Assembly (NCBI GenBank): GCA_043823065.1
Contig: JBDRBB010000008.1
Location: 93,643-157,642, forward strand
Reading direction: 5' to 3'
DNA length: 64,000 bases
Origin: Pseudomonadota bacterium
GTDB taxonomy: Bacteria; UBA10199; 2-02-FULL-44-16; DYJF01
Shown here: positions 3,967 through 33,521 of the stretch, one piece after another
Layout: the number at the start of each line of letters is the position of its first letter
Position numbering within the stretch: position 1 is the stretch's first letter
Translations under genes and position numbers: made by a program
The notes under the pieces: model-generated
Databases searched by the model: none
Told to the model about the DNA's origin: nothing
What the model saw: only the letters and a program-made list of their open reading frames with translations

Positions 3967-3967
3967 C

Positions 3968-4899: not shown

Positions 4900-4902
4900 A
4901 CT

Positions 4903-6875: not shown

Positions 6876-6882
6876 GTTATAA

Positions 6883-6913
6883 TCCCCCTTTGTTGGTTTT
6901 GATAGGTTATATT
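6883..6913. repeat. 31-bp direct repeat, copy 2
   Basis: Identical to 4903..4933. Supplies the SD (AAAGGGGGA) immediately upstream of the MBL-fold gene ATG. Confidence 0.6.
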
Positions 6914-7110
6914 TTACAGAAATTAGAGGCAGGAGAAAAGTAATTAATTTCTAGGCCATTTGTGCTGACAAACCTTTTTTAAGAATATGTTTTTGGATTA
7001 AATTTTTGCCAAAGACAAAATATAACATTAACCCAATGCTAGCCAAGAATATTAATCCAAAGCCAAATCTTGTTTAGGTTGGCAATTAAAACCCCCTAAA
7101 AACCTTAATT

Positions 7111-8952
7111 TTATTGCCTGGTGGCATTTATAGTAAAGGTATACTCATCCATACTTGATTGCTTGGTGCCAGATGCTGTCATGGTATTGCCTGAAATCGT
7201 GGCTGTAAATGGGGCCACATTTGTAACATCAAGATCAAAGAATGAGAATTCATAATTGCCGTTGCTAAGTACTGTGCCTGCTAGCGTGCCTTCAGAGCTG
7301 TGGATGTCTGGTGGACAGCTAAGTGTTGGATCTTCTGACACTACACTCTCTTGGATGTTAGTAAAATAACTTGTTCCAGAAAGTATGCCTGCTTCGTTGG
7401 TTATGGACATCGATATATTGCCGGTGGTGGTATAGGTGCAAACCCATACGCCGTTAAACACGTCAACAATTTCATAGGTTCCAGACCAGGTTTCGGTGCC
7501 TTCTGTGCCGCCTCCTCCATCTGCTGAAACAATGGTCAGAATGATTTCTTCAGATATGCCGTTTATAGTCACGGTTATTCTAACCGTGCCTGGCCCAACT
7601 CCAGTAACCAAGCACTCTTCGTCAACTGTGGCCACTGAAGTATCATCAGCAACGCAGCTATAGAGGAAATCTTCCAGTTCGTTTCCTGAAATGTCATAGG
7701 CGCTTGGTATCAGCTGAAGCAAGTAGCCGTCACATAGCTCATCGCTCTCAACACTTACATTTACGCTGGCCACGGCAGTTGCCGGGTTGCCATTGGCATT
7801 GGCCAAGTCCCAGACGTCGTTAAGCTCAGCCCCACCACCAGCCTCACCAGCAAAAATTATCATGCGGTTGGTTGCCTGGGCATAGGCAATGCCAAGGTAG
7901 CGACGCGCAGTTGGAACTGGATTGCAAACCACATAGGTGCTCCAGGTAGGTGAGGTTCCGCGGGAATCAAGCAATATGGAGACTTCGTTTAATGCTGTAT
8001 TTGAGGCATTAACGCCGCCAAAGACAATCATTCGATCTTGAGTAGGATCATATACTGCGCTGTGACTATATCTGTTTTCAGTTGAAGCTGAAGGGGACAA
8101 ATTGGTCCAGCTAGGTGTTTCGCCTGTGCCGTTGGCATTGGAAAGTACCCACGTATCATTTTTAGAAGATGAAGCAACGCTGGTGCGTGAAGTAGAAGTG
8201 CTGCCTCCAAAAATGATCAAGCGATTGTCTGTTGAATCATAAACAGCGCTGGCCGCAAGCCTGGCTGAAGGTGCTGTTCCAGAAGGGGTTAGCTGTTGCC
8301 AGGTTGGAGCAGTTGTTGCATTGGTGATAAGATAGACATTGTTATACAACGTGCAGGTAGAAGTTCCGCAGGCTCTGCCGCCAAACAAAATAAGCGTATC
8401 ATTTGTTTCATCATAGGCAAAAGCCATTATAGCTCTAGATGAAGGTGCGGTTCCAGCAATAGCTGGATTGGTCCAAACAGGCGCACCTCCAGTGCCATTG
8501 GCATTGGAGAGTAGCCACAGATCCATATAAATTCCTGCTGAGTCAGAACCACCAAAGAGGATAAAATTATTGGCATTACTGTTATAGGCAACAGCAGAAA
8601 ATGCCCGGGCTGCAGGCGGGCCTCCAACTGGAGCTAGCTCTGTCCAAGCAGGAGTGTCAGTTCCTGAAGCATTGGTTAGAACAAAAATATCATTAAGATA
8701 GTTTGTGCCGTCATACCCCCCAAAAGAAATAAGGATGTTGTTGGTTGCATCATAGGCCACGCCTGGCGAATAGCGTTCAGACGGGCTGGTCCCGGTTGGA
8801 GAATGTTGGGTCCATACAGATGCGCAGGTAGCTGTGCTTGTATAATTTAAACAGACAAGTTCACCACCACCAGACCCGCCGCCACCGCCACAACTAGCCA
8901 AGCAGATAATACTAAAACAAAATACTAATATTGTTCTGATCTGTTTTTTCAT
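7111..8952 (-). CDS. Kelch-repeat beta-propeller lipoprotein with a C-terminal bacterial Ig-like (Big_2-like) domain
   Basis: Signal peptide plus lipobox LASCGGGGGSGGG. Repeated motifs (NxLIxFGG, YDxTNNxLIxFGG, VYDSTDNRLIIFGG) typical of Kelch blades. Confidence 0.7.
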   Translation of the reverse strand: MKKQIRTILVFCFSIICLASCGGGGGSGGGELVCLNYTSTATCASVWTQHSPTGTSPSERYSPGVAYDATNNILISFGGYDGTNYLNDIFVLTNASGTDTPAWTELAPVGGPPAARAFSAVAYNSNANNFILFGGSDSAGIYMDLWLLSNANGTGGAPVWTNPAIAGTAPSSRAIMAFAYDETNDTLILFGGRACGTSTCTLYNNVYLITNATTAPTWQQLTPSGTAPSARLAASAVYDSTDNRLIIFGGSTSTSRTSVASSSKNDTWVLSNANGTGETPSWTNLSPSASTENRYSHSAVYDPTQDRMIVFGGVNASNTALNEVSILLDSRGTSPTWSTYVVCNPVPTARRYLGIAYAQATNRMIIFAGEAGGGAELNDVWDLANANGNPATAVASVNVSVESDELCDGYLLQLIPSAYDISGNELEDFLYSCVADDTSVATVDEECLVTGVGPGTVRITVTINGISEEIILTIVSADGGGGTEGTETWSGTYEIVDVFNGVWVCTYTTTGNISMSITNEAGILSGTSYFTNIQESVVSEDPTLSCPPDIHSSEGTLAGTVLSNGNYEFSFFDLDVTNVAPFTATISGNTMTASGTKQSSMDEYTFTINATRQ

Positions 8953-9301
8953 AACCCAACCTCCGAATGAAAAAACTCCACCAATATGATTGGCTTGTAG
9001 AAGATTCTATTTCCGCCAGTGGTAGTTGTCAAAATCTATTATTTCACGATCTAGGCTAAATTACGCTGATCCAATATTTAGTGCCAGGTTAAAAATAGTA
9101 TGTTATAAGCATTGAAGATTAATATGAATAAAATAAAAAATATTTATTATAATTGTGATTGTGTTTTTTGGCGTAAGCCTGAATAGCTGCGGCTCAGGTT
9201 CAGCATCTATCAAGGACACATTGTATCCTCGTGTAAAACAACGCCTTGTCTGGTTTTAGATTTTATAGTATATGTAACACAACTCAAAAGGAGGGAGCGT
9301 T

Positions 9302-9439
9302 ATGAAAAAAAGATGGCTGTGGTTGTTTTTTGGCTGTGTCGTATTGTCAGTTGCAGCTTTAGTATTATACTCATGTGGTTCCAGCGGAACGTTCGAACCC
9401 ACGACTTATACTGTGACGCTGAAAGGAGCATCATCATGA
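9302..9439 (+). CDS. Small (45 aa) lipoprotein-like ORF; not in the ORF track
   Basis: Strong SD AAAGGAGGGAG 6 nt upstream. Sequence MKKRWLWLFFGCVVLSVAALVLYSC GSS... has a signal peptide and lipobox. Its stop overlaps the next gene's start (ATGA). Confidence 0.35.
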   Translation: MKKRWLWLFFGCVVLSVAALVLYSCGSSGTFEPTTYTVTLKGASS

Positions 9440-10131
9440 AAAAAATTATTTATCTAGGGTTGCTACTTTCATTCTTGTCGTCCCCTGCTTTGGCAGCGAC
9501 AAACGCTTCTTCAGCTATAATAAGACTTTACAAGGCCTATATGTCAACCAGCGGTGACTGCTCGTCGCCAGAAGTGTTCTTTGATGCTGCCAGCGATCCA
9601 ACGACCTATCCCAACGGCTATGCCGAAGTAGACATGGTCAACAATCCGACGATAGGCAGCGGCTCTCTGACTGGCGGAACCTATCAGTGCGTTATCTTCA
9701 AAATGTCTGATCAGATCACCTTTACGGCAGCTGATGATGAAGGTGCCCAGTGCGTTCAAGATCAGACATACACGACCGATGTTTGCTGGAATTGGAACGA
9801 TAACGTGGTCATCAAGAACCCAGAAACTAATGAGGAGACGCTATGCACAACCATGGGTGAGCCAGCCGAAACCATTTGGGTTTATATTAGCACCTGGTCG
9901 ACCCTCTTAACAGGATCAGGGTGCGAGGACTGCGACGGGTTTATTCCGCCGACAACTGATGGTGACACGAAAAACGGCTATAAGTTAACAAACGCTGTTG
10001 ATCTTGGCAGTAATATTATTGGGACGTTTGTTTTCGGAACCGATGGTAAAGTCGTTACTGAACAGTCAGGGGGGCTGGAACGGTGCGGATTAGAGACTCC
10101 TGATTTTTCATTCAGAGTCGAGGCGCAGTAA
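9436..10131 (+). CDS. Secreted Cys-rich protein of unknown function
   Basis: Start trimmed to MKKIIYLGLLLSFLSSPALA (signal peptide) with SD GAAAGGAG upstream. About 10 Cys. Confidence 0.55.
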   Translation: MKKIIYLGLLLSFLSSPALAATNASSAIIRLYKAYMSTSGDCSSPEVFFDAASDPTTYPNGYAEVDMVNNPTIGSGSLTGGTYQCVIFKMSDQITFTAADDEGAQCVQDQTYTTDVCWNWNDNVVIKNPETNEETLCTTMGEPAETIWVYISTWSTLLTGSGCEDCDGFIPPTTDGDTKNGYKLTNAVDLGSNIIGTFVFGTDGKVVTEQSGGLERCGLETPDFSFRVEAQ

Positions 10132-10175
10132 AAATAGGTATATTAATCAGAGTAAAATATATAGTAAAACTATTT

Positions 10176-11402
10176 ATGAAAAAACCAATTTGCTCTTTGT
10201 TGTTTTTGATCATGTTGGCAGGCCTTGGTGGTTGTTCTGGCCCCTTGCCTTGTGCTGGGATATCTGCTCCAAATCTCACCTGTCTTAGTTCCTTTGAAGA
10301 AGGAGTTCTTTTTGAAACAACCGGACAAAGTGGAGGCAACAAGTTTAAAGTTTTGGTGTTAAATGGAACCTGGCAGGAGATGGGCAGGCAATATGGTTAT
10401 TTGGTTCTAGATGAATTAAATGAATTTTATGATCTAGTGGTCACTGATCATCTGATGAACACTCAGGGTCTTGCTTATGCAGAGATATTAGAATCTGCGC
10501 AACAACTATATGACCAAAGATATGATTATCAAAAAGAACTTGTTGCTGGTTTGGCTCAGGTTCCTACGTTAAGTTTGGAAAAAGCCATGATCATCAGCTC
10601 GCTTATTGATTTGGTCGAGCCAGAAGCAGGTTGTTCTAGTATGGCAGCCTGGGGCGAATATACTGCAGACAGGCCTTTGGTGGTTGGTAGAAACTGGGAC
10701 TTGGCGCCGCCATTTGGCGAATTCAAAAAATACATGTCGGTGGTTGTTTACAATCCACAAGATGGTGTCACCAGTTTGGCTGATATTAATTTTTTGGGCA
10801 CAATTTCTCTACAGACTGGTATAAATAGTCATGGTATATTTTTGGATGTGCAAAATGGATCACACTCAGATCCTACACCGCCTATTGAAGATAGAAGGTA
10901 TCCTACTTATGTATTAGGTGATGTTTTGCTAAATTCTCAGAACATCGAAGAACTTGACGCGCAAATGATGTCAGAGGCTAATCTTCCTAAACTTGCTGCA
11001 ATTATTAATGTGGCTGAACCAAGTGAGGATTTGGTTTATGAATGGGCTACTTATGATGTAAAACAAAGGACAGCACAGGGACTGATTGCTTCGTCTAATC
11101 ACTTTGTAAATCCAGATTGGACTGATTTGCCAGTGGTCGAGCCTGGCGCAGCAGGTGATTATAGCTTGGAAAGGTTGGCTAATCTATTGGCGCTGGGAGA
11201 AGAGTATAAAGGCTCTATTGATGCCACAGTAATGCAGCAGATATTTGATACTTCTTTTGATGATGGCGGCCCAACCTTTTCAGAATATACAGTTTATCAA
11301 GTTGTGGCCAGACCAGCAGGTAAAACCATCTGGCTTAAGACACCTGGCCTTTCTGGTTGGGAAATTATTGAACTTGAATCTCTTTTCGCTGTCTCACCTT
11401 GA
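10176..11402 (+). CDS. Lipoprotein, peptidase C45 / acyl-CoA:6-APA acyltransferase-like Ntn-hydrolase (putative)
   Basis: Lipobox LAGLGGCSG. Candidate autoproteolytic Gly-Cys nucleophile (GCSSMAAWG) followed by GRNWD, which resembles the C45 RNxDW motif. Confidence 0.45.
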   Translation: MKKPICSLLFLIMLAGLGGCSGPLPCAGISAPNLTCLSSFEEGVLFETTGQSGGNKFKVLVLNGTWQEMGRQYGYLVLDELNEFYDLVVTDHLMNTQGLAYAEILESAQQLYDQRYDYQKELVAGLAQVPTLSLEKAMIISSLIDLVEPEAGCSSMAAWGEYTADRPLVVGRNWDLAPPFGEFKKYMSVVVYNPQDGVTSLADINFLGTISLQTGINSHGIFLDVQNGSHSDPTPPIEDRRYPTYVLGDVLLNSQNIEELDAQMMSEANLPKLAAIINVAEPSEDLVYEWATYDVKQRTAQGLIASSNHFVNPDWTDLPVVEPGAAGDYSLERLANLLALGEEYKGSIDATVMQQIFDTSFDDGGPTFSEYTVYQVVARPAGKTIWLKTPGLSGWEIIELESLFAVSP

Positions 11403-13880
11403 GCGCTTGCGCGTGCTGATCATGGCTGGTTTTACGTTCCAAATCTCTTTGGTATATTCCTGAATGGCCCGGTCTGAAGAAAATTTTCCAGAACGTGCGG
11501 TATTAAAGATAGAAATGCTGGTCCATTTTTCCACATTCTCTCTGGTTTGGCTCACCCTTTCCTGACAAGCAGCATAGCTGGAAAAATCAGCAAGCACAAA
11601 ATAAGGATCATCCCAGCGCAAATTTTCCACGATCGGAAAAAAAACATCTTTATCGCCATTGGAAAAATGTCCAGAGGAAAGAAGTGAGAGTGCTTCAGCA
11701 ATTCTAGGATCATTTTCAATAAAAGATGCAGGCCGGTAACCATCATAGCGCAAACGTTCAACCTGCTTGGTGGTAAGACCAAAAAGGAAAAAATTTTCTG
11801 GTCCAACTTCTTTAAGAATTTCGATGTTGGCGCCGTCCAGCGTGCCAATGGTAGCAGCGCCGTTCATCATGAACTTCATATTGCCAGTGCCAGAGGCTTC
11901 TTTGCCAGCTGTTGATATTTGCTCAGAAAGATCGCCGGCTGGATAGATGAGCTGCGCTAGTTTAACATTAAAATCCGGGATAAAAGCCACTCGCATGTAT
12001 TGATTAACCTGAGGATCAGCATTTATTACTTCACCTACAGCTGTGATTAATTTGATAATTCGCTTGGCCATGAAATAGCCTGGCGCTGCTTTGCCGCCAA
12101 AGAGGAAAACTGTTGGTAGTGGCTGATATTTTGGATCGCGTTTTATCCGGCAATACTGGGTGATAACATAGAGCATATTTAGATGCTGCCGCTTATATTC
12201 GTGAATCCTTTTGACTTGCACGTCAAAAAACCAGTCAGGATCGATTTTGATTCCAGTTTGCGTAAACACGTGAGTAGTTAGCTGCTCTTTCTTTAAACGT
12301 TTAACAGCGCGCCACTGTTTTCTAAACTCTGCATCTTTGGCAAATGGCTCAAGTTCGCGCAAGCGCGTAATATCTGTCACCCAACCTTTGCCAATAGTAT
12401 CATTGATCAAAGTAGAAAGTTCAGAGTTACAAACTCTTAAGAAACGGCGGGGAGTGACGCCATTGGTCTTGTTGGAAAAGCGTTCTGGCCACATTTCAAA
12501 AAAATCTTTGAGCACAATTGTCTTGAGAAGTTCAGTATGTAGTTCAGCCACGCCATTGATAGCATGGCTGCCAATGCAAGCCAGGTGGGCCATGCGGATG
12601 CGTTTTGGATCTCCTTCAGCAATAATTGACATGCGACGCACGCGCTCTTCATCACCAGGAAACTTTTTGCGTACCTCATCCAAAAAGCGGCGATTGATTT
12701 CAAAAATAATTTCCAGATGTCTGGGTAGCTGACCTTGAAAAAGAGGCAAGCGCCAAGTCTCCAGAGCTTCCGGTAAAAGGGTGTGATTGGTGTAGCCAAA
12801 AGTTTTAACGGTAATCTCCCAGGCAGGATCCCAATCTAGATCATACACATCAATTAACAAGCGCATCAACTCAGCCACAGCAATTGAAGGATGAGTATCA
12901 TTGAGTTGAACTGCAAACAGATCTGGAAACGAGGTAAGTGGTTTGCCAGACATCTCAATAAAGTGCAGCATGTCTTGCAAAGAACAGGAAACGAAAAAGT
13001 ATTGCTGCATTAGCCTTAACTTTTTACCAACCAAAGGCCCGTCATTAGGATAAAGGACTTTGGTGATTGTCTCTGAGAACATCTTTTCGTGCACAGCTTC
13101 ATAATAATCGCCGGCATTGAAGGCCTGAAAGTCAAACGATTCGCAAGCCTCAGCGCTCCAAAGTCTTAAAGTGTTGCAGGAATTTACGTGATAGCCCAAA
13201 ATTGGTGTGTCATAAGCCATGCCCCGGACCATGTGAAAGGGAATCCAGCGCACGCGAAAGCGCCCATTCTCATCAGTAAAGCTTTCAGTATGTCCGCCAA
13301 TGCCCACGTTATAGGTAACAGTAGGTTTGGCAATCTCCCAAGGGTTTCCATAGCGCAGCCACTTGTCGGTGACCTCAACTTGCCAGCCATCGCGAATCTG
13401 TTGATCAAAAATTCCAAATTCATAGCGAATGCCATAGCCGATGGAGGGACAAGTAAGTGTAGCCAGCGAATCCAGATAGCAAGCAGCTAAACGCCCAAGT
13501 CCTCCATTGCCTAGACCAGGCTCTTCCTCTTCTATCAGAAGGTCTTCTAGTTCAAAGCCAAGATCTTTCAAGGCTGCGCGAACTTCCTGCTCAATGTCTA
13601 AATTGACAATATTGTTGCCAAGGTGAGGACCCATTAAAAACTCTGCAGAAAGATAGCAGGCAACTTTTAGGCCGCGGCCATGATAGGCTTCCACCGAGTG
13701 TCCCCAAAGATGCTGCATGCGGTCGCGCACTGCCAAGGCCAGGGCTTTATAATATTCGTGTTTGGTGGCAGAGGATGGTATCTTGCCAATGGTGTAGGTG
13801 AGGTGGTCTTGCACAGACTGTTTTATAGCTTCAACACTGTTGCTGATCCGGCCGTTTACTTTTGATTTTTGCTCGCTCAT
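11394..13880 (-). CDS. glgP: Glycogen (alpha-glucan) phosphorylase
   Basis: GNGGLGRLAACYLDSLATL and the PLP-lysine signature EASGTGNMKFMMNGA. 828 aa. Confidence 0.95.
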   Translation of the reverse strand: MSEQKSKVNGRISNSVEAIKQSVQDHLTYTIGKIPSSATKHEYYKALALAVRDRMQHLWGHSVEAYHGRGLKVACYLSAEFLMGPHLGNNIVNLDIEQEVRAALKDLGFELEDLLIEEEEPGLGNGGLGRLAACYLDSLATLTCPSIGYGIRYEFGIFDQQIRDGWQVEVTDKWLRYGNPWEIAKPTVTYNVGIGGHTESFTDENGRFRVRWIPFHMVRGMAYDTPILGYHVNSCNTLRLWSAEACESFDFQAFNAGDYYEAVHEKMFSETITKVLYPNDGPLVGKKLRLMQQYFFVSCSLQDMLHFIEMSGKPLTSFPDLFAVQLNDTHPSIAVAELMRLLIDVYDLDWDPAWEITVKTFGYTNHTLLPEALETWRLPLFQGQLPRHLEIIFEINRRFLDEVRKKFPGDEERVRRMSIIAEGDPKRIRMAHLACIGSHAINGVAELHTELLKTIVLKDFFEMWPERFSNKTNGVTPRRFLRVCNSELSTLINDTIGKGWVTDITRLRELEPFAKDAEFRKQWRAVKRLKKEQLTTHVFTQTGIKIDPDWFFDVQVKRIHEYKRQHLNMLYVITQYCRIKRDPKYQPLPTVFLFGGKAAPGYFMAKRIIKLITAVGEVINADPQVNQYMRVAFIPDFNVKLAQLIYPAGDLSEQISTAGKEASGTGNMKFMMNGAATIGTLDGANIEILKEVGPENFFLFGLTTKQVERLRYDGYRPASFIENDPRIAEALSLLSSGHFSNGDKDVFFPIVENLRWDDPYFVLADFSSYAACQERVSQTRENVEKWTSISIFNTARSGKFSSDRAIQEYTKEIWNVKPAMISTRKRSR

Positions 13881-13942
13881 ATTTTCCCAGAAGTTTTAAT
13901 AATAAGCTAGGTCATTATTTTTATCAATAACTACTATTAGTT

Positions 13943-13989
13943 GGTTTGTGGTTTTGATCATTGCAATGTTAAGGTTTTTTTTGGGGGGG
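13943..13989. repeat. Repeat B copy 1: ~40 bp with core palindrome CATTGCAATG and a T8G7 homopolymer tract
   Basis: Matches 18503..18543, where the tract is only T5G4. Lies in the divergent promoter region between glgP and the 14161 gene. Confidence 0.55.
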
Positions 13990-14160
13990 CGATGAGCTGT
14001 CTCGGAATTTTGCGTGTCAATTACCTGACTTGAAAAATATCGTTCAACAAGTAATTTATTACCCCCTCTTTCCAAAATACTATAATTAACAGTCAATTGG
14101 ATGATTTGTTTTTGGCATATAATATGCACAAAAAATTATATGGTATATAAAGGAGATTTT

Positions 14161-14610
14161 ATGAAAAAATTAATTTTTTCCATTTTTGCAACTTTTTTTC
14201 TGATTGCTCTAATGATTACAGAAGTTGCTGCCCAAGGTTTTCAAATTATGATTATTGATAAAGATACTGGCCAGGGAATTTCTAGTGCAACTGTAGATAT
14301 TGAACTTGGTACACGGCCTAAGCTTGGTGATATTTCTGCTCGGACTTATGATTACGAAAAGATTGCCACGTTGTGGACGTTGGATGGATATTTAAATGGA
14401 GTTACAACAATTCCCATTGATTTAGACGAAGTTGCTGAAGAATATATTAGCGTTAGATTAAAAATATCTGCGCCTGGATATAAAACTATTTTTAAAAAAT
14501 GGAATAATTTGAATAATAATTTTATAAATACTGAGCCTGCACCAACGCTGGAAATTGGTTTAGAAAAAATTCCAAAGATCAGAGTATTTCAAAGATTGCT
14601 TGATGAATAA
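14161..14610 (+). CDS. Small secreted protein with a carboxypeptidase-regulatory-like beta-sandwich
   Basis: Start at MKKLIFSIF... (signal peptide) with SD GGAG upstream. Motif GFQIMIIDKDTGQGISSATVDIE. Confidence 0.45.
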   Translation: MKKLIFSIFATFFLIALMITEVAAQGFQIMIIDKDTGQGISSATVDIELGTRPKLGDISARTYDYEKIATLWTLDGYLNGVTTIPIDLDEVAEEYISVRLKISAPGYKTIFKKWNNLNNNFINTEPAPTLEIGLEKIPKIRVFQRLLDE

Positions 14611-14689
14611 ATAAAGGGAAAGTCCTCAACCCTGCAAAATTGATAAAGCTGAGTGGATATTGGGGCTGAAGAAATGACCCAGATTTTGC

Positions 14690-15496
14690 CTATTGCACCG
14701 GTGTTATATAGACATTGGTGCCAACCAGCTTCCAGCCCAAACCTTCGTATATATATTTTAATTCAAATGAAATTCTGGATGGGCGTGTTGGGTAATGCCC
14801 TTTTATGGTTAGAATGCCATTTTTGGATAATGTAGGTTTTTGATCAAACACAGGCGGATAGCTTTCCAAAACAGGAACTATATTTATGTCCGCGTCTGTA
14901 AAAGATTTAAATGCCTGGCTGAACCCATTAACAGACAACTCTTTTTTCCAGGAATTGGAGACAAAATTATGAAATCCAGTAAAATCCTTGTCTCTTACAG
15001 ACACAGCAAATTTCATAAGACTTTCACTTACCAGCTCTATTGCTTCTGATTCGCTAGGAAGTCTGGTGTCTTCATTTTCTTGAAGCAGAGCAGGTTTCTC
15101 AACCAAACCAGCATTTGGTTTGGATATGGAATAGATTTTCCATTCACCTTTTTCTTTTACAAATTCCATCTTGACTGGAACAATTCCATCTGAATCGGTA
15201 ACAACCGACCCTTCCAGAGTTCCTTTTTCTCCTGATATGGAACGATTATCCCAGGAAAATTTTTTGAAATTCATTAAGCTGCTTTTGTTCAAAAATTCTA
15301 TAAATCTGTTCTGAGGGGTGCTTATTTTGAAATCTTCAGATACATATATATAGGCTTTTTGATAATCTCTGTTTTTTAAATTGATAAAAAAACTATCAGC
15401 AGTCTTAACCAGTCCGGATGTAAACCAAAAGACAAGGCTCACTCCTATGGCAGCAATAACAACCAGCCCTATAAGTATAAGAAACACTTTTTTCAT
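14690..15496 (-). CDS. Membrane-anchored protein of unknown function (two repeated domains)
   Basis: N-terminal TM anchor; no recognised catalytic motif. Confidence 0.45.
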   Translation of the reverse strand: MKKVFLILIGLVVIAAIGVSLVFWFTSGLVKTADSFFINLKNRDYQKAYIYVSEDFKISTPQNRFIEFLNKSSLMNFKKFSWDNRSISGEKGTLEGSVVTDSDGIVPVKMEFVKEKGEWKIYSISKPNAGLVEKPALLQENEDTRLPSESEAIELVSESLMKFAVSVRDKDFTGFHNFVSNSWKKELSVNGFSQAFKSFTDADINIVPVLESYPPVFDQKPTLSKNGILTIKGHYPTRPSRISFELKYIYEGLGWKLVGTNVYITPVQ

Positions 15497-15594
15497 ATAT
15501 AACCCCCGGTTTGATTTTTAACACAATGTTACTTGTTAAATCAATTAGGTTATTGAGTTGGGAAGGTGAAAAGGTGGTTGCTTAGGAAATCTAA

Positions 15595-16383
15595 TCAAAT
15601 TATTCCTAACCCGAGTAGCAAAGCAACAACTAGCAAGAGGCAGCCGGTGATTTGCTGTATTGTAATCATGGTTACCTTGTGTAAAAAACGTTTGCCAAGC
15701 ATCACTCCACAGAAAGCTGCAATGACTCCTGATGCAACCAGCCCCACTTCATGGTTATGAGTAATAGCGCTAAAGCGTGCGCCGACTAGAATTGCGCCAT
15801 AAGCCACAAGACGCGCCATGTCCACCAGCAATCCAATGATTGCATTCGTGCCTACAAAGGACTGGGGCGAAATACCAACCTTGGCCAAAAAAGCGGATCG
15901 GAGCGCACCTTGGTGCCCAGACAGACCTCCGAAGAACCCTGAGAGTAGGCCTCCAAGCAAGATCCAGCGGCGATTGATTTCCATTTTGGCAAATCGTGGA
16001 TGCAGTTCAATTGTTGCAAAAACAGCCATGAGCAGGGCTATGATGAGCTTAATTGGTGTGATGACTGCTTGTTTGCCAAATAGTGAATATGTCCAGATTT
16101 CTGTCATTCCGGAAAGAAGTGTGAGTACGTAGACACCGCCGAAAGCTGCAATGATGGCCGGAAGGCCAAAGCGCAACACCAGCCCTTTGTCCGCCATCTT
16201 GCCAAGCAGGACTGCCTTGAATATACCGTTGAAAAAGTGGACAAGCGCCGTGGCCGCAATTGCGATTTCTACAGGAAGAAACAGGGCGAACACCGGAAGA
16301 AGCAGGGTGCCCAATCCAAATCCGGAAAACATTGTCAGACCAGAAGCAAGTGTGGCTGCAACGATGATAAAAATATAATCCAT
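15595..16383 (-). CDS. TauE/SafE (DUF81) family membrane exporter
   Basis: Duplicated 4-TM halves with Gly-rich motifs (SGFGLGTLLLP, GGLSGHQGALRSAFL). Confidence 0.7.
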   Translation of the reverse strand: MDYIFIIVAATLASGLTMFSGFGLGTLLLPVFALFLPVEIAIAATALVHFFNGIFKAVLLGKMADKGLVLRFGLPAIIAAFGGVYVLTLLSGMTEIWTYSLFGKQAVITPIKLIIALLMAVFATIELHPRFAKMEINRRWILLGGLLSGFFGGLSGHQGALRSAFLAKVGISPQSFVGTNAIIGLLVDMARLVAYGAILVGARFSAITHNHEVGLVASGVIAAFCGVMLGKRFLHKVTMITIQQITGCLLLVVALLLGLGII

Positions 16384-16387
16384 AAGT

Positions 16388-16813
16388 TTAGATATCCTGT
16401 AACAGTTCAGAATGTATTTTCCTTAATAGCTTATCTCTTGCAGTTCTAAAGGCGTTGTACTTCTCATCTGTTGAGAATTTAACAACTGCCGGATCTTCGA
16501 TGTTCCAGTGAATCATCTTGCTTCCTGCAAAATAAGGACACGACTCTTTGGCATTATTGCAAACAGTAATGACAAAATCAAAAGAAGCGTTTTTAAATTC
16601 ATCTACTGATTTTGAACGATACGATGAAATATCAATTCCTATTTCCTTCATAACTTCTATTGCGTGTGGATTAACGACTGTAGGATTAATCCCTGCGCTA
16701 AATACTTCATACTTATTACCAGCTAGATGGCGCAGTAATCCTTCCGCAATTTGACTTCTGCAAGAATTCCCCGTGCATAAAAATAAAACTCGTTTCTTCA
16801 TTGTTCTCCTCAA
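16388..16813 (-). CDS. arsC: Arsenate reductase, LMW-PTP family (thioredoxin-coupled)
   Basis: P-loop VLFLCTGNSCRSQIAEG. 141 aa. Confidence 0.85.
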   Translation of the reverse strand: MRRTMKKRVLFLCTGNSCRSQIAEGLLRHLAGNKYEVFSAGINPTVVNPHAIEVMKEIGIDISSYRSKSVDEFKNASFDFVITVCNNAKESCPYFAGSKMIHWNIEDPAVVKFSTDEKYNAFRTARDKLLRKIHSELLQDI

Positions 16814-16829
16814 GCTGTTTTAAACCAAT

Positions 16830-17999
16830 TTATATAAAATATCCAAACAACATCCCGCTGATGGTTGACATAATAACAACCAAAGAAACATAGGCAATGG
16901 TCTTTTGGGTGCCAATCACTCCCCGAATGACCAGCATGTTTGGAAGGCTCAAGGCTGGTCCTGCCAGAAGAAGCGCCAGAGCAGGGCCTTGCCCCATTCC
17001 TGCGCCGATGAGTCCTTGCAATATCGGTATTTCAGTAAGTGTCGCGAAATACATAAACGCACCGACAAAGGAGGCAAAAAAGTTTGCTGACAGGGAATTC
17101 CCGCCTACAAATCTAGCGACCCAACTAGACGGTATGAGTCCCTCGTGATCGGGTCTGCCCAAAAGAAAACCCGCGACAACAACTCCGATAAAAAGAAGCG
17201 GCATGATCTGCTTGGCAAAATTCCAAGAAGCCCTAGTCCAACTTGTAATCTCATCTTTCTTAAACCAACTGATAATCGTGTAGATAAGCACTAAAAGAAA
17301 TGTTCCGGTGATGTACCATTTATATGAGTAGATCAAAGCCCATGTAGTAGAGTCTTCCCCAGAAGGTTTTCCCCAGTTTGCAAAGACCAAAACACCAACC
17401 ATAGAAGCAAAATAGATAATCTCTTTCCAAAAAGGCCGTGCGATTTTTTCTTCAGAAAAAGTAAGATTGCCGCTGGCATGCCTCTCTCTTTCTTCCCTAA
17501 GAAATAAGAAGTGCATCAATAGGCCGACAACCACACTAAAAAGAATCGCGCCGATTGCCCTTGCCAGACCCAGCTTAAAACCAAGTATTCTTGCGGTCAT
17601 TATGATGGCCAGAACATTTATGGCTGGCCCGGAATAAAGAAAGGCAATTGCAGGGCCAAGACCAGCACCTCTTTTGTATATACCTGAAAAAAGCGGCAGT
17701 ACCGTACAGGAGCAAACAGCAAGAATAGCACCTGACACAGAAGCGACGCCGTAAGCCAAGACTTTATTTGCCTTTGCGCCGAAATATTTGATGACCGAGG
17801 CCTGACTTACAAATACCGCTATTGCTCCGGCGATAAAAAAGGCTGGAACCAGACAAAGCATGACATGTTCCTGCGCATACCACTGGGTCAGCGCGAGCGA
17901 CTCGAAGAAGGGTCCACTAAACGGGAGCATTCCAAGTGGAAAAAAATACAAGACGAGGAACACCGCCAACATAAGGATAAATTTATAAATCTCTCTCAC
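16830..17999 (-). CDS. DUF318 / ArsP-like predicted permease
   Basis: CSCTVLP motif, resembling the ArsP-family motif as I recall it. GTG start with SD AAGGGGGAA, overlapping the DUF134 stop (GTGA). Confidence 0.7.
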   Translation of the reverse strand: MREIYKFILMLAVFLVLYFFPLGMLPFSGPFFESLALTQWYAQEHVMLCLVPAFFIAGAIAVFVSQASVIKYFGAKANKVLAYGVASVSGAILAVCSCTVLPLFSGIYKRGAGLGPAIAFLYSGPAINVLAIIMTARILGFKLGLARAIGAILFSVVVGLLMHFLFLREERERHASGNLTFSEEKIARPFWKEIIYFASMVGVLVFANWGKPSGEDSTTWALIYSYKWYITGTFLLVLIYTIISWFKKDEITSWTRASWNFAKQIMPLLFIGVVVAGFLLGRPDHEGLIPSSWVARFVGGNSLSANFFASFVGAFMYFATLTEIPILQGLIGAGMGQGPALALLLAGPALSLPNMLVIRGVIGTQKTIAYVSLVVIMSTISGMLFGYFI

Positions 18000-18325
18000 T
18001 TCTTCCCCCTTGAAGGTACCACCTTGCAACAACCACCTTCAATCTTGATTGCCTTGAGATTTACAAAAGCATCGGTTACTTTTTTGTGTGCAGAGGCTAA
18101 AATCCTTGAGATCGTTGAACGGTGAATTTTCATTTTGCTTGCTACTTCTTCCTGCTTCATTTTTTCAAGGTACGAAAGCCGCATGGCCTCAAATTCATCC
18201 AGTGACAATACAACACCTTCAAGCTCAGATGTCCTTTTACACTTCGGTCTGAAGCAGCGCTCGTTGATATCACATCTTACCCATCGTTGCTTTTTTGGTC
18301 TCATAATCACCTCATGGTATTGCAC
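17996..18325 (-). CDS. DUF134 (UPF0251) DNA-binding protein, putative operon regulator
   Basis: Matches the DUF134 pattern: RPKKxR...F.P...LSLDEFEAMRL...EVA..M...RSTI.RIL.SA.KKV.DA.VN.KAI.I. Confidence 0.7.
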   Translation of the reverse strand: MQYHEVIMRPKKQRWVRCDINERCFRPKCKRTSELEGVVLSLDEFEAMRLSYLEKMKQEEVASKMKIHRSTISRILASAHKKVTDAFVNLKAIKIEGGCCKVVPSRGKK

Positions 18326-18368
18326 CTATGTGCATAACATTTCAAACACAATGGAGTCAACAGCTTAT

Positions 18369-18412
18369 ATTAAGGGATCAAGTCTTGCGTTTCGTGTTTT
18401 GAATCTACTTAT
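18369..18412. repeat. Repeat A copy 1 (ATTAAGGGATCAAGTCTTGCGTTTCGTGTTTTGAATCTACTTAT)
   Basis: Near-identical copies at 20756 and 22158, all in the same orientation. Confidence 0.6.
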
Positions 18413-18502
18413 ATTAAACATAAGATGGAGGAAAATGTCTAAGGGTGTAATTACTTAGAGCTATTTGTCTTTTTGTTCGTCCGTCTTATGAGTTTCTTAG
18501 TG

Positions 18503-18543
18503 GGTTTATGGTTTTGATCATTGCAATGTTAAGGTTTTTGGGG
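18503..18543. repeat. Repeat B copy 2 (palindrome CATTGCAATG core, T5G4 tract)
   Basis: Matches 13943..13989. Lies in the divergent promoter region between the DUF134 gene and the 18642 lipoprotein gene. Confidence 0.55.
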
Positions 18544-18641
18544 AAAAATGATACTTATTTTATAAGTATGAAGTATATATTTAAAGCTTTTATTCAGTAG
18601 GAATTTAAAGTATATTATGTAGTATTCAAAAAGGAGGGGGT

Positions 18642-19772
18642 ATGAAAGTAAAAGATAGGAAATTCTTGTTCGTGTGTGGCATTGTTAGCCTGCTGGCGTT
18701 TGCAGCGTGTGGAGGTGGTTCTAGTGGTGGCGGCACAACAAGTGCGGCCTTTCCAACCAGTATGGGAGTTGATGTGAGCAGCGTTTCATCAGAAGATCTC
18801 CAGAACGTTAATTTTTCAGTGGCCAAGGCAGGCATACCTGACACAGGCACCATGTCCGCGCCCATAACTACGGCTACGAACATGGCAGATCTTGTTACCA
18901 AATTATCTGATCATATGTTTTCCGGAATTGCGGCTGCCTTAAATAGCCAGCTGACGTCAACTGCCACGCAAATAAGCGGCACTGTGTTTGGCGGCACCCT
19001 GAAAATGGATTTTTCAAACTACAATTATGATGTGGATGGAGATGGAGAAAATGATCCATGTTCTGGAACAGCATCAATAACTTCAACACAGTATACTTGT
19101 TTCAGGGCCTGGTTTAATGATAATCGCTTTATGATTGGATATCTTCAAACAGCGCCGACCGCTGACAATTCAGGCAGAGGCATAGTAATTGCGTCCCCTA
19201 CCTTAGTTGCTGATGCCACCCAGGTTGATGCGATTGGTATGGGCAATAATGTAATGACCTACCTCATGTGGGATAACACCGTGGCAGCAGAAAATACTTT
19301 TAACGGCTATATGTCAGGGCAGATGATGGAGGCCCCAGGTACAGGTACGCCAGTAGATCTCACCATTGGCAGAATTGCTGCTAGTTCTGATACAACAACA
19401 GATAAGATTACACTTAGAACAGCAGCCTACTTTGGTACACCGCAACCAGTAACAATCCCCAATGTTGGGGAAGTCGAGGTTGACCAAGTGTTCTTTAATT
19501 CACAATTTATTTCAACCGGCACCTATCTTTTGTTTGAAAATGATTTCCTCTTTCAAGGAGCTGAGGTTGCGGCTGCCCCGAATAACATCTGGTTTTGTGG
19601 TGTTATAGCAACTGGCAATCCGGCAGCTCCTGGAGAGCCTCAGGATACCAGGCTTTGCGAGGGAGAAGGGCTTAGTGCTACCGGCATTGAATATCCTTCG
19701 CTTGCGGCAACTGATGCCTCCAAGACCCAGTTCCCGAACACCACTGTATTTCCTGAAGCCCCGACGTTCTAG
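18642..19772 (+). CDS. Lipoprotein of unknown function with a Gly/Ser linker
   Basis: SD GGAGGGGG upstream. Signal peptide and lipobox LAFAACGGGSSGGG. Confidence 0.55.
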   Translation: MKVKDRKFLFVCGIVSLLAFAACGGGSSGGGTTSAAFPTSMGVDVSSVSSEDLQNVNFSVAKAGIPDTGTMSAPITTATNMADLVTKLSDHMFSGIAAALNSQLTSTATQISGTVFGGTLKMDFSNYNYDVDGDGENDPCSGTASITSTQYTCFRAWFNDNRFMIGYLQTAPTADNSGRGIVIASPTLVADATQVDAIGMGNNVMTYLMWDNTVAAENTFNGYMSGQMMEAPGTGTPVDLTIGRIAASSDTTTDKITLRTAAYFGTPQPVTIPNVGEVEVDQVFFNSQFISTGTYLLFENDFLFQGAEVAAAPNNIWFCGVIATGNPAAPGEPQDTRLCEGEGLSATGIEYPSLAATDASKTQFPNTTVFPEAPTF

Positions 19773-19793
19773 CTTTTCATAGTTATAACTTGG

Positions 19794-19848
19794 AATTCCA
19801 GGGATACGATACATATTCATCGTGTCCCTGGAATTTTTATTTTGTTTG
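19794..19848 (+). terminator. Rho-independent terminator (16-bp stem aattccagggatacga/tcgtgtccctggaatt plus a T-run)
   Basis: Seen directly, 22 nt after the 18642..19772 stop. Confidence 0.6.
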
Positions 19849-19960
19849 TCACCTTTGGAGAAATGTCCAGAGGAAAGTAGCTCAAGCACTTCAGAAATTC
19901 TGGGAACGGTATTGGCTTGTTCGGGTAGCTTTAAATGGTAATTCTGTTGACAGGTTGTCT
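19845..19960 (-). pseudogene. Decayed fragment of an alpha-glucan phosphorylase gene
   Basis: The minus-strand translation ...NTVPRISEVLELLSSGHFSKGDK aligns with resident GlgP ...NDPRIAEALSLLSSGHFSNGDK. About 75-80% nucleotide identity to 11645..11705 by eye. In-frame stops lie upstream and the similarity is lost downstream. Confidence 0.55.
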
Positions 19961-20058
19961 AGTCTCGGCCAGTATCTTATCAATACCTTGTATCCAAATG
20001 GTTGGTCGGAATTTTTTGGAGCATTGTACCGCTAGATGGTTAAAGAAGGTGAGTGTAT

Positions 20059-20700
20059 ATGGAAAACAGAAAAATTATAGGACTATCTGCTGTAATTGCT
20101 ATTGCTATTTGTTGCGTTGGTTGTGGCTCTGGTTCATCAGGTGGATCAGACGACAATGATCTGTCAGAAACACAGGCTGACGCTCTTTCTGGACAAATCG
20201 CGGATGCAGCGGTCAATGCCATGAATAGCGGCAATTTTGCCGCCATGGTGAGCAAAGCGCTTGCGGGCGAAGATCTTCCCAGTAAAATAGCCAAAACCAT
20301 CCAATGCAATGATGCTGGTTGCACGATCAATGTTCCGATTGACTACGGAGTTAACTGTACTGCGGGAGGTAGGATAGCGGTTACCGGGAGCATTACCGGA
20401 AGCACTAGCAGCAGCGGTACGGGGATTTTGCAGATTGGTGCCACAGAGACGATTACCGACTGGGAATGTATTAGTGGCTTTATCATCAATGGCGATCCTT
20501 ACATTTCCTTGAGCGGGACCTTTAGTTTTCTTAATGGTGCTCCATCTACCCAACAATCGCTTACCATCAGCGGTGGTTTTAAATGGGGAACAACAGCTGC
20601 AGAAAGTTGCCAAATACATCTCTCAACCAATTTTTATACCAGCGGCGGCGGAACAACCACAGGTACAATCTGTGGTTACACGGTTAATGAAAGTTTTTGA
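20059..20700 (+). CDS. Lipoprotein of unknown function with a Gly/Ser linker
   Basis: SD AAGGTGAG upstream. Sequence MENRKIIGLSAVIAIAICCVGCGSGSSGGSDD. Confidence 0.5.
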   Translation: MENRKIIGLSAVIAIAICCVGCGSGSSGGSDDNDLSETQADALSGQIADAAVNAMNSGNFAAMVSKALAGEDLPSKIAKTIQCNDAGCTINVPIDYGVNCTAGGRIAVTGSITGSTSSSGTGILQIGATETITDWECISGFIINGDPYISLSGTFSFLNGAPSTQQSLTISGGFKWGTTAAESCQIHLSTNFYTSGGGTTTGTICGYTVNESF

Positions 20701-20755
20701 GTTAAATCTTATAATATTTACTCCGTCTGACGAATTTAGAGCACTTGTGTTTCTT

Positions 20756-20812
20756 ATTAAGGGATCAAGTCTTGCGTTTCGTGTTTTGAATCTACTTATG
20801 AGTTTCTTGCGC
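20756..20812. repeat. Repeat A copy 2, extended by TATGAGTTTCTTGCG
   Basis: Immediately 3' of the AAA+ ATPase gene. The extension also occurs at 18487, next to copy 1. Confidence 0.6.
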
Positions 20813-20884
20813 CATTAGTTCTTTGCAAACTCAGAACTAGAGAACGGAGAACGAACGGAGAAGAACGGGTCAAGACAATGACCT

Positions 20885-22153
20885 TTACAGCGCCTTGCGC
20901 ATGAAGTCGATGTCTTCGGCCTCCACCCACGGCAAAAACCTTACGTGTCTGCCTTGATATGCAATTTCTTCAGACAAGTAATCGTTGAACACAAGCGCTT
21001 CTGGCGCATCTTCGTAAATATCGAGAAATTTTTTCATTCCATCCGGCACCTCAGCCCTTTTTATAGCTGATTTCACTTCGATGGGATATGGAACGCGGTT
21101 CTTGATGACAATAAAATCGACTTCATGTCCTTGTTTGGTTCGCCAAAATCTAAGTTCCATATTTGCTTTCAATTGGCGAATGAGATTCAGAGCAACAAAG
21201 CTTTCCTTCAAAAAACCCGCGTCCTTTCTTTTGTTGATAGAGCTAAAATCTTTCAACAAACTATTTCTAATACCGGTATCGAACAAAAATTGTTTCCGAG
21301 ATTTTTTGAGTTCGTTGCCAAGGTTTCGCGCAAAACTTGGCACGGTATGACACACATAAGTTTGCGACAGGATGTCGAGATATTTTTCAACGGTCGGTTT
21401 TGACATATCGATCTCGTTTGCGAGATTTGCCGATACAACGATTGATCCCTGTTGTTCAGCAAGGAGATACATCATATGATTAAAGGCACGCACATTCTCT
21501 TCTCTGACCATCCCTTTGATGTCGCGATTGATATACGTTGCGACTATTGTCTGTAATTCCTTTGGCGCCTCATCTTTGCTTGCCAGATTAACTAATCCAG
21601 GCATTGCACCTGTCACAAGAATATCCTCGTCCTTGAACCCTTGTTTTTGACGAAGCTCGGCAAGCGAAAGTGGAAAGATTCTGTTGAAAATAACTCTGCC
21701 TGCCATGCTTTCTTTCAAATGCGTGTGCAACTCAAGCGCAGAAGATCCCGAGGCAAAAATCTTAGGTTTTTTAATTCTGCTGTCGAAGATGGCTTTGAAA
21801 ACGTGGGAGATGTTTTTTAGGAGATAGAGTTCATCGATAAACACCACGTCGCCACTTGATATTATAGTATCGAATTGTTGTTTGTCTGTAGCGCCCAAAG
21901 ACAGGAGATTGTCCGGAATTTCAAGATCAAAAAATCGTGTCTTACGACCTTTCTTTTTTGCCGCTGTTTCCAGCTCTCGAAGTAGAAATGTTTTCCCGAC
22001 TTGCCTTGGACCCACAAGAACCGAGATCTTCGGATCATTGATTTGCGCTAATAACTCATTGAATATGTTGCGTTTTATCTTTATATAACTATTGTAAATC
22101 TTAACTTTACAATGGTCAAGAAAGTTTTTAACACTCCTTAAAATTGGGATCAT
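20885..22153 (-). CDS. AAA+ superfamily ATPase, COG1373 type (AAA_14 plus DUF4143)
   Basis: Walker A VLVGPRQVGKTFLL and Walker B-like VVFIDE. 422 aa, the typical size. Confidence 0.8.
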   Translation of the reverse strand: MIPILRSVKNFLDHCKVKIYNSYIKIKRNIFNELLAQINDPKISVLVGPRQVGKTFLLRELETAAKKKGRKTRFFDLEIPDNLLSLGATDKQQFDTIISSGDVVFIDELYLLKNISHVFKAIFDSRIKKPKIFASGSSALELHTHLKESMAGRVIFNRIFPLSLAELRQKQGFKDEDILVTGAMPGLVNLASKDEAPKELQTIVATYINRDIKGMVREENVRAFNHMMYLLAEQQGSIVVSANLANEIDMSKPTVEKYLDILSQTYVCHTVPSFARNLGNELKKSRKQFLFDTGIRNSLLKDFSSINKRKDAGFLKESFVALNLIRQLKANMELRFWRTKQGHEVDFIVIKNRVPYPIEVKSAIKRAEVPDGMKKFLDIYEDAPEALVFNDYLSEEIAYQGRHVRFLPWVEAEDIDFMRKAL

Positions 22154-22157
22154 TAAG

Positions 22158-22199
22158 ATTAAGGGGTCAAGTCTTGCGTTTCGCGTTTTGAATCTACTT
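22158..22199. repeat. Repeat A copy 3
   Basis: Abuts the ATPase start codon (ATG at 22151-22153). Two substitutions relative to copies 1 and 2. Confidence 0.6.
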
Positions 22200-22213
22200 T
22201 AAAAAATCATAAA

Positions 22214-22247
22214 CAAAAACCCCGCAAATGCTTGCGGGGTTTTGTTT
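22214..22247. terminator. GC-rich hairpin ccccgcaa/ttgcgggg flanked by T/A runs on both strands (terminator for tRNA-His)
   Basis: Seen directly, just 3' of the tRNA on the minus strand. Confidence 0.5.
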
Positions 22248-22251
22248 TCTG

Positions 22252-22327
22252 GGTGGCTAGAGGGATTTGAACCCTCGGCCTTCTGGGCCACAACCAGACG
22301 CTCTAACCAAGCTGAGCTATAGCCACC
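22252..22327 (-). tRNA. tRNA-His (anticodon GTG)
   Basis: Folds as a cloverleaf with an 8-bp acceptor stem including G-1:C73, which is the hallmark of tRNA-His. Anticodon loop TTGTGGC. T-arm GAGGGTTCAAATCCCTC. CCA is not encoded. Confidence 0.85.
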
Positions 22328-25035: not shown

Positions 25036-25060
25036 ATTCCCGCTTTCGCGGGAATGACAA
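25036..25060. repeat. REP-like hairpin, single-ended copy (minus-strand TTGTCATTCCCGCGAAAGCGGGAAT)
   Basis: Almost identical to 52299..52327. Lies between the secG stop and tRNA-Leu. Confidence 0.5.
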
Positions 25061-32439: not shown

Positions 32440-33521
32440 TTGTTATTCCCGCGGAAAAACCAGACGGACCAAAATTGGACAGTTGGTGCATCAAAACGCT
32501 ACACCTGTTAGCAACTGAGTCGGTGCAAAAGCCCTATTTTACGCACTTTTTATTTTGGCACGAGGTTTGCTTTATATTTTAGCATGCCCTACTTACCTAG
32601 ATACTTTATTATCTGCGATGACTCCTACTTCCATGTGACTTGGCAATGCCACAACCAAGATTGGCTTCTAAAATGGGATTGGGCCAAGGAAATCTATTAT
32701 AATCTCCTGCGTAAATATAAAGATAAGTATGGAGTAGAAATCTATGCTTATAACTTTATGGATAATCACCCGCACCTTGCTGGTCACTTAAGATCTAAAG
32801 ATGAATTTTCTGCCTTTTTTCGCCTAGTTAATGGTTTATTTGCCAAAGCTGTTAACAAACGCCTTAACAGAAAAGGTCAGGTCATTATGGATAGATTCAA
32901 ATCTCCTAGAATTGAATCTGATAATCATTTGATAAATGTCATGACTTATATTGATCTAAATCAGCAACGAGTAGGCAAAGTAGATCATCCAAAGCAAAAT
33001 ACATGGTCATCTTATAGGTACTATGCATATGGCCAAAAAGATTCTCTGATTACCCCTTCACCTTCATATTTACTATTAGGAAGAACACCAACAGAGAGGC
33101 AAAATGAATATAGGAGATTAGTTGAGGGATTAATTGGAAATGACAAAGAAATAAATATATCTAAAACCTATTTCATAGGAAACCCAGATTGGGTAATTGC
33201 CAGATACAAAGAGTATAGAATTTTGTGGAAGACTGTCTATATCAAGCAAGGCCTATCCAATGCTAATTCTCCGCCAGGATAGCAAAAAAAGCAAGCAAGC
33301 GTGCAGTTTAATTTGAGAAATTAAGGATTTGATTGTAGAGCTGTATCCAAATTTAGCCAAATTCAAAAAAAATACCAAAATACAAATCGACAAGCGAAAA
33401 TTTAGTTTTGCAAGAGAGGTTTGCAAGTTTCAGATATTTGTAAATTGCCAATCAAATACAAAGTTGAGCAACTTTTATTCAAAAACTAATCAATAAGTAA
33501 AAATTGGTCCGTCTGAGTTTC
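32440..33521 (+). mobile_element. IS200-like / RAYT-like element: HuH transposase gene flanked by 12-bp inverted repeats, with a REP half-site at the left end
   Basis: Left end has TGTTATTCCCGCGG, a REP-like half hairpin. Inverted repeats are cagacggaccaa (32461-32472) and ttggtccgtctg (33505-33516). Confidence 0.4.
32584..33282 (+). CDS. HuH Y1 transposase-like protein (IS200/Transposase_17 fold; REP-associated tyrosine transposase-like)
   Basis: HuH motif MDNHPHLAGHL. YIDLNQQRV (similar to the YIxxNPV motif) and a Tyr-rich region SSYRYYAY. 232 aa. Confidence 0.55.
   Translation: MPYLPRYFIICDDSYFHVTWQCHNQDWLLKWDWAKEIYYNLLRKYKDKYGVEIYAYNFMDNHPHLAGHLRSKDEFSAFFRLVNGLFAKAVNKRLNRKGQVIMDRFKSPRIESDNHLINVMTYIDLNQQRVGKVDHPKQNTWSSYRYYAYGQKDSLITPSPSYLLLGRTPTERQNEYRRLVEGLIGNDKEINISKTYFIGNPDWVIARYKEYRILWKTVYIKQGLSNANSPPG

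Follow-up and report, generated by a model that had tools for sequence, protein, structure and literature searches.

Islands that accumulate 3′ of tRNA genes, with acquired cargo lying between direct repeats of an attachment (att) site, are the described systems closest to the locus reported here, a small repeat array beside the tRNA-His gene of an uncultured Pseudomonadota bacterium. The window, that is, the whole stretch of DNA that was analysed, comprises 64,000 nucleotides (nt), or 64 kilobases (kb), of contig JBDRBB010000008.1 (positions 93,643 to 157,642 of the forward strand; assembly GCA_043823065.1), and our subject is a 42-nt sequence, repeat A, whose three copies border two small modules, one with two lipoprotein genes and one with a single ATPase gene. 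The array resembles tRNA-linked islands in its position 3′ of the tRNA, in the same-orientation repeats around acquired cargo, and in the deviant base composition of the ATPase and lipoprotein genes, expressed as G+C content at third codon positions (GC3); it also recalls tandem accretion in such islands through its variable content, its candidate defence gene, and the sharing of three repeats by two modules. Unlike islands of the tyrosine-integrase type, the putatively mobile modules are accompanied by no integrase gene among the open reading frames (ORFs) scanned with Pfam, which were the main ORFs at 15–27426 and twenty ORFs at 32.6–57.8 kb, six ORFs of at least 90 amino acids (aa) elsewhere in the window being left unscanned. 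Repeat A also differs in lying beyond the tRNA and its terminator and in containing no tRNA sequence, and the modules are small, at 1.4 and 2.4 kb.

Integron cassette arrays provide a second comparison, as they too consist of small one- or two-gene modules of unrelated origins with same-orientation repeats between them. In contrast to integrons, the scanned ORFs include no IntI, repeat A has neither the palindrome nor the fold of an attC-type site, its copies are near-identical where attC sites vary, and the ATPase gene has its own promoter. Repetitive extragenic palindromes (REP), bacterial interspersed mosaic elements (BIME), and miniature inverted-repeat transposable elements (MITE) are, like repeat A, short, intergenic, and lineage-private; repeat A is, however, not palindromic, has no terminal inverted repeats, and occurs in only three clustered copies. 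Among defence systems the relevant family is PDC-S01, an ATPase fused to a PD-(D/E)XK domain, which is reported to rank as the fourth most common prokaryotic defence candidate and has been repeatedly transferred, with no experimental validation yet (PMC12988326); DUF4143 has been placed in the PD-(D/E)XK superfamily (PMC3424549). The ATPase of the window shares both domains with this family and differs from it by an ATA in place of the start codon and an ORF extended by 23 codons. The locus is of a familiar kind: a variable islet next to a tRNA gene, in which junction repeats accompany a candidate defence gene.

We favour, tentatively and at a chance that we would put just short of even, a reading in which the copies of repeat A are junction duplications left by the serial insertion of two small modules at the tRNA-His hotspot. 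The features on which this reading turns are listed below in window coordinates.

18369–18410, + strand: repeat A copy 1, intergenic, with the DUF134 operon (− strand) and lipoprotein gene 1 (+ strand) diverging from either side
18642–19772, + strand: lipoprotein gene 1, first gene of the module, with a signal peptide and a Cys lipobox
20053–20700, + strand: lipoprotein gene 2, with a lipobox
20756–20797, + strand: repeat A copy 2, where lipoprotein gene 2 and the ATPase gene converge at their 3′ ends
20885–22153, − strand: ATPase gene (COG1373, AAA_14 + DUF4143; PADLOC PDC-S01), a 422-codon ORF identified with Pfam and PADLOC profiles
22091–22119, − strand: sigma-70-type promoter of the ATPase gene, TTGACC-N17-TACAAT, conserved in homologs and the point at which cassette homology starts
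22158–22199, + strand: repeat A copy 3, tRNA-proximal, with two substitutions relative to copies 1 and 2
22216–22243, bidirectional: intrinsic terminator with a 12-bp stem, downstream of tRNA-His
22251–22326, − strand: tRNA-His (GTG)

The 42-nt consensus of repeat A has three exact matches in the window, all on the + strand, and none in shuffled sequence; repeat finding on the window recovered the same three copies as a single family, and a profile search with all filters off found no further copy in the 64 kb. Copies 1 and 2 agree at every position of a 45-nt unit (18368–18412 and 20755–20799), and copy 3 differs from them at two of 42 positions (A>G at position 9 and T>C at position 27). Copies 3 and 1 additionally have in common a gapped, AT-rich stretch of about 13 nt on the tRNA side. 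Outside the repeat the flanks of the copies are otherwise unrelated to each other, with abrupt boundaries, and its edges are therefore sharp. All three copies lie in one 3.8-kb stretch, the remaining 60 kb being free of them, a clustering with a random expectation of p ~0.01, and copy 3 begins 52 nt beyond tRNA-His. A first-pass annotation of the same DNA, made from the sequence alone, had described three direct copies, the third at 18369, with a strong terminator and tRNA-His beside them, all of which was borne out. It had also placed the repeat 73 nt 3′ of the ATPase gene and directly against its start; the first distance applies to a 57-nt version of the repeat, the gap from the 42-nt core of copy 2 to the ATPase stop codon being 87 nt, and the second applies to the annotated ATG, only 4 nt from copy 3, and not to the start codon of the family discussed below. 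The possibility it had raised that repeat A is a widespread leader of unrelated genes found no support: the pattern (27 specified bases) had 0 exact matches in genome, metagenome, and viral contig collections, and blastn against phage and plasmid collections gave no real match, only one chance hit of 24 nt.

The order of events and the mechanism that we infer run as follows. Two modules, the two-lipoprotein module (~2.3 kb) and the ATPase cassette (~1.36 kb), would have been inserted just beyond the tRNA-His terminator. At each insertion the incoming, probably circular, DNA would have recombined with the resident 42–45 nt copy, either by Campbell-type integration with a tyrosine-type integrase that acted in trans or has since been lost, or by short-homology recombination; the outcome of either route would be an insert flanked by direct copies. 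Near-identical, sharp-edged direct copies fit what Campbell-type integration leaves behind, and their best-supported interpretation is as the junctions of two successive insertions. Copy 3, beside the terminator, would probably be the resident ancestral copy, and the ATPase would be cargo and not the driver of insertion. As the lipoprotein genes, and not the ATPase, lie between the identical copies 1 and 2, it is their module that would represent the latest event or else the subject of gene conversion.

The ATPase gene has the properties of a cassette in its own right. Its product combines an N-terminal AAA_14 domain (PF13173, E 8.8e-21) that has a Walker A motif, GPRQVGKT, and a Walker B motif, VVFIDE, with a C-terminal DUF4143 domain (PF13635, E 3e-36, profile positions 2–159 of 160) in which the PD-(D/E)XK-type motif, D...E-x-K, is intact (EVDF...IEVK). 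It matches the PADLOC PDC-S01 profile PDLC04789 at E 3.9e-82 over positions 2–369 of 375, and the gene is thus a candidate single-gene phage-defence member of PDC-S01. Databases hold many homologs at 60–84% identity. At four homolog loci that could be read (L014–L017), with 74–76% amino acid identity by tblastn and 69–73% nucleotide identity, the neighbourhoods are wholly different, with no conserved partner gene; at the DNA level only 22119–20891 is homologous, an interval which extends from the −35 box to the stop codon. The arrangement TTGACC-N17-TACAAT-N6-start is kept in all contexts (window 22082–22119; L014, L016, and L017), with unrelated sequence upstream. Because the spacing from promoter to start is 6 nt and there is no Shine-Dalgarno sequence, the ATPase mRNA is probably leaderless. 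The start codon of the family, ATG or GTG in homologs whose proteins begin MKIKR..., is ATA in the window (22084–22082), and the annotated ATG at 22153 lies 23 codons (69 nt) upstream of it. The GC3 of the gene is 0.435, against 0.335 +/- 0.035 for core genes. By sequence comparison, promoter and ORF together form a self-contained, horizontally moving unit.

A comparison with relatives, gathered via the adjacent DcrB-like protein as anchor, indicates how variable this site is. In L018 (GCA_054920855.1), whose anchor protein is 94% identical to that of the window, collinearity with the window extends between 31991 and the outer edge of copy 3 at 22199; alignable similarity ends there and resumes only at the DUF5684 gene (window 4516–4914). 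Because synteny is broken between 22199 and 4914, ~17 kb of the window has as its counterpart in L018 a stretch of 4.7 kb with unrelated genes, which encode a retropepsin-like (protease-like) pair, a GH19 lipoprotein, and a peroxiredoxin. In L018 the tRNA-His 3′ end (gtcccactagccaccc) also recurs 145 nt downstream of the tRNA, followed by a terminator of its own (10573–10850); this duplication is a classic integration scar, in which hardly anything of an element remains between the two copies. Right after the terminator there is a weak collinear similarity to repeat A (20/28 aligned nt), and 16 of 5000 shuffles gave a match as good.

Other relatives carry other sequences at the same place. L022 and L024 are 99% identical to the window over tRNA and terminator, depart from it at 22207, 8 nt before copy 3, and continue from the tRNA-His terminator into a LOG-like gene. 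Because the window retains a relic of that gene (14630–14676), the stretch 14677–22206 constitutes a 7.5-kb indel relative to L022. L023 holds an element with a 503-aa large serine recombinase (3457–7800), the end of whose ORF overlaps the tRNA-His 3′ end and which is accompanied by HTH_17 and HTH_3 genes; L026 has a HEPN/MNT nucleotidyltransferase toxin-antitoxin-like pair at the tRNA-His 3′ flank (5261–6005). In L019 (7440–12626) and L020 (10510–15732) a DcrB-like gene with a product 83–85% identical is followed directly by gyrB-dnaN-dnaA, with no tRNA-His there, which places the locus of the window at a rearrangement breakpoint near the replication-origin gene cluster of the lineage. The tRNA-His 3′ flank is an insertion hotspot, with different cargo in each relative that carries the tRNA, as the first-pass annotation had supposed. 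Neither the ATPase nor repeat A was found at the tRNA-His site of the relatives compared, the sole exception being the weak repeat similarity in L018; the pattern that the annotation had named as counter-evidence, relatives with the ATPase at this site but without the repeats, was not seen.

The module between copies 1 and 2 (about 2.3–2.4 kb) consists of the two lipoprotein genes, neither of which has a Pfam family. Their GC3 is 0.40–0.42 (0.416 for gene 1), compared with the core value of 0.335 +/- 0.035. A 43-nt intergenic repeat, D6, occurs in two copies that are 95% identical (13937–13979 and 18497–18539), each ~100–120 nt upstream of a + strand gene, at 14101 and at 18642 (lipoprotein gene 1), respectively. 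D6 carries a TGG...TTGCA arrangement that exceeds a canonical sigma-54 promoter in length by one base.

Several observations weigh against the favoured reading, and in particular against repeat A as an att-like bracket around the ATPase. The identical pair of copies encloses the lipoprotein module and not the ATPase, and no repeat A or comparable flanking repeat is present at the ATPase loci of L014–L017. No integrase, resolvase, recombinase, or ordinary transposase was identified in or beside the array among the scanned ORFs. Repeat A contains no inverted core-type binding arms with a 6–8 nt spacer, and no tRNA sequence. Repeat A does not mark the ends of the 7.5-kb indel relative to L022, and L022, which has the highest local identity of any relative, is without any A-like sequence, such that the ancestry of copy 3 rests on the weak match in the more distant L018. 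The copy count, moreover, refers to the 64-kb window, and further copies may exist elsewhere in the source genome. No working mobile element was found, and an att-site role would be a supposition drawn from the architecture of the array. The recombination scars or attachment sites proposed by the first-pass annotation are accordingly best read as junction duplications, its integration-related aspect being weakened by the lack of a recombinase in the scanned ORFs and of tRNA sequence in the repeat. Its one-gene ATPase module is supported to the extent that the gene is a PDC-S01 cassette found in unrelated contexts; it is nevertheless one of two modules, and the identical pair brackets the other. 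Of the additional partner genes in other genomes for which the annotation suggested a check, none is conserved across L014–L017.

Further searches of repeat A for known signals gave negative results. A second copy of the last 14–21 nt of tRNA-His was not present in the window at up to 2–3 mismatches, and neither attC core-site motifs (RYYYAAC / GTTRRRY) nor a dif-like structure could be read in repeat A. As a known RNA it was rejected, since only tRNAs passed the Rfam gathering threshold and only weak, terminator-driven matches were obtained at E<=1. As a structured RNA or DNA it was likewise rejected, its fold energies being no better than those of shuffles on both strands (z −0.27 to +1.25).

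The array forms part of a larger mosaic, for which the remaining features are given here.

4900–22206, no strand: whole variable region relative to L018, with the repeat A array filling the tRNA-proximal 3.8 kb
14630–14676, + strand: 3′-end relic of the LOG-like gene, 95% nucleotide identity to L022 942–985
14690–18325, − strand: DUF134 operon, encoding a DUF134 regulator, an ArsP_1 permease, a low-molecular-weight phosphatase (ArsC-like), a TauE exporter, and a 268-aa protein
19792–19837, + strand: strong intrinsic-terminator-like hairpin of 19 pairs, after lipoprotein gene 1
19845–19905, − strand: glycogen phosphorylase C-terminal relic, 20 aa, 80% identical to glgP residues 725–744

The region at 4.9–22.2 kb is heterogeneous in composition, with deviant GC3, and contains relics of two genes, glgP and the LOG-like gene, which show repeated rearrangement. 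Intact glgP is located at 11394–13880, and its relic sits between the lipoprotein genes, just past the terminator hairpin. The DUF134 operon (DUF134, ArsP, phosphatase, and TauE genes) has a GC3 of 0.31–0.48, deviant and heterogeneous relative to the core; a palindrome, ATGCACATAGGTGCAAT, closely precedes the DUF134 start, and a second ArsP_1 permease is encoded at 52671–53729. Farther along the window, three tandem paralogous ORFs at 38595–42805, with segments 60–89% identical, follow a histidine kinase gene, and the first of them was confirmed as a sigma-54-dependent response regulator.

The same mosaic contains a second duplication. D7 is a perfect 31-nt direct repeat (4903–4933 and 6883–6913), unrelated in sequence to repeat A, which encloses an ODP-type metallo-β-lactamase-fold gene and a PAS histidine kinase gene (4927–6875, − strand). 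The bracketed module is inserted in the leader of DUF5684, and the duplicated segment includes the ribosome-binding site; L018 retains the uninterrupted order of leader and DUF5684, and in the window the native upstream sequence is now found past the distal D7 copy. The architecture is the same as that of repeat A, and a generic insertion process that generates duplications accounts for D7 no less well than a dedicated att site would. On an alternative reading, the repeats would have arisen by a process that is not site-specific, such as a single crossover at short chance homology, repair template switching, or later gene conversion, in which case repeat A would have neither a recombinase nor a function. 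This is favoured by the fact that a different 31-nt sequence encloses another module likewise in the same region, by the lack of a recombinase gene nearby among the scanned ORFs, and by repeat lengths that vary (31, 42–45, and up to about 55–61 nt). We nonetheless regard it as unlikely: the same sequence was used twice in tandem, beside a site at which L023 and L018 hold bona fide integrative elements, which is what a preferred site predicts, and a generic process must assume a circular donor that already carried 42–45 nt of identity to the target. D7, in short, favours a generic insertion process, and the reuse of one sequence where relatives hold real integrative elements favours a preferred site.

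Repeat A might instead belong to a lineage-specific family of short dispersed sequences, REP- or MITE-like or a small RNA gene, whose members are clustered here by chance; we consider this improbable. Short intergenic repeats do occur elsewhere in the window, namely D6 (43 nt), D7 (31 nt), and a REP-like hairpin, ATTCCCGC-N4-GCGGGAAT, found at 25036–25055 and 52305–52324 in inverted orientation. The window also has a Y1_Tnp (IS200-like, possibly RAYT-type) gene of 232 aa at 32584, ~10 kb from the array and the only transposase-like ORF among those scanned; a perfect sigma-54 consensus, TGGCACGAGGTTTGCT, at 32556 precedes it (32556–33282). On its minus strand repeat A starts AA-GTAG, which we take to resemble the 5′ tetranucleotide of REP sequences. 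A dispersed family sits less well, however, with only three copies in 64 kb, all within 3.8 kb, with a sequence that has no significant fold or real Rfam match and, where the copy ends were inspected, no terminal inverted repeats, target duplications, or palindromic character, and with the absence of copies in the relatives and public collections searched. A direct link between repeat A and the REP-like hairpin (25036, 52305) was rejected, the heptamer they have in common, TAGATTC, being compatible with chance.

A cis-regulatory role, in which repeat A would be a binding site for DUF134 or another factor or a reused minus-strand promoter module, appears more doubtful still. Such a role would explain the positions of copies 1 and 3: on the minus strand, the DUF134 start follows copy 1 at 62 nt and the −35 box of the ATPase gene follows copy 3 at 38 nt. 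On the + strand the repeat has a GG-N10-GC arrangement with TTGC. Copy 2, however, sits where two genes converge at their 3′ ends and has none to regulate, and the distances to the two promoters are unequal (10 vs 38 nt). Repeat A offers no credible sigma-54 site: despite its GG-N10-GC, it is not among the 47 sites of the window within two mismatches of the sigma-54 consensus, itself a number expected by chance; nor was a sigma-70 promoter found within it. Identity of 95–100% over 42–45 nt with razor-sharp edges is also atypical of operators, and the 45/45 identity of copies 1 and 2 goes far beyond what the binding of a protein would require. As a coding relic, repeat A would be a minor possibility; both substitutions of copy 3 are synonymous in one open frame per strand (IKGSSLAFRVLNLL on the + strand), a pattern with p roughly 0.1 that is based on two changes only, and the 14-aa fragment is too short to search.

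A more unusual proposal, which we rate as a long shot, is that the tRNA-His flank is an acquisition site for cassettes that operates without an integrase, an unknown enzyme duplicating a 30–45 nt target with each insertion (twice for repeat A, and once more for D7). Promoter-bearing or promoter-capturing modules would then be taken up and a repeat-module-repeat array would grow from a fixed site on the terminator side, with a logic akin to the growth of integrons or CRISPR arrays but with gene-sized inserts. Least credible of all is an assembly artefact, in which the assembler would have joined strain alleles or a small circle through a common 45-nt sequence; the source is a metagenome-assembled genome and strain-level variation at the site is real (L022 vs the window), but copy 3 is not identical to copies 1 and 2, no two copies share their flanks, and the junctions would be spanned by real k-mers, 45 nt being shorter than the largest k-mers usually used by assemblers.

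Weighed against these alternatives, an ordinary insertion hotspot with junction duplications is the most likely account of the locus, and as read it holds nothing that would surprise a specialist. If this account is true, the array would illustrate clearly, on a small scale, how a hotspot beside a tRNA gene gathers candidate defence genes and surface lipoproteins, here in an uncultured lineage of groundwater type and with junction duplications and gene relics still legible. Repeat A also predicts a route by which a module may be lost, through recombination between the 45-nt direct repeats. Perhaps the more useful finding is the ATPase unit itself, which extends from the −35 box to the stop codon and has a conserved, probably leaderless promoter; such a unit could be of help in expressing and testing PDC-S01, a very common defence candidate that still awaits validation.

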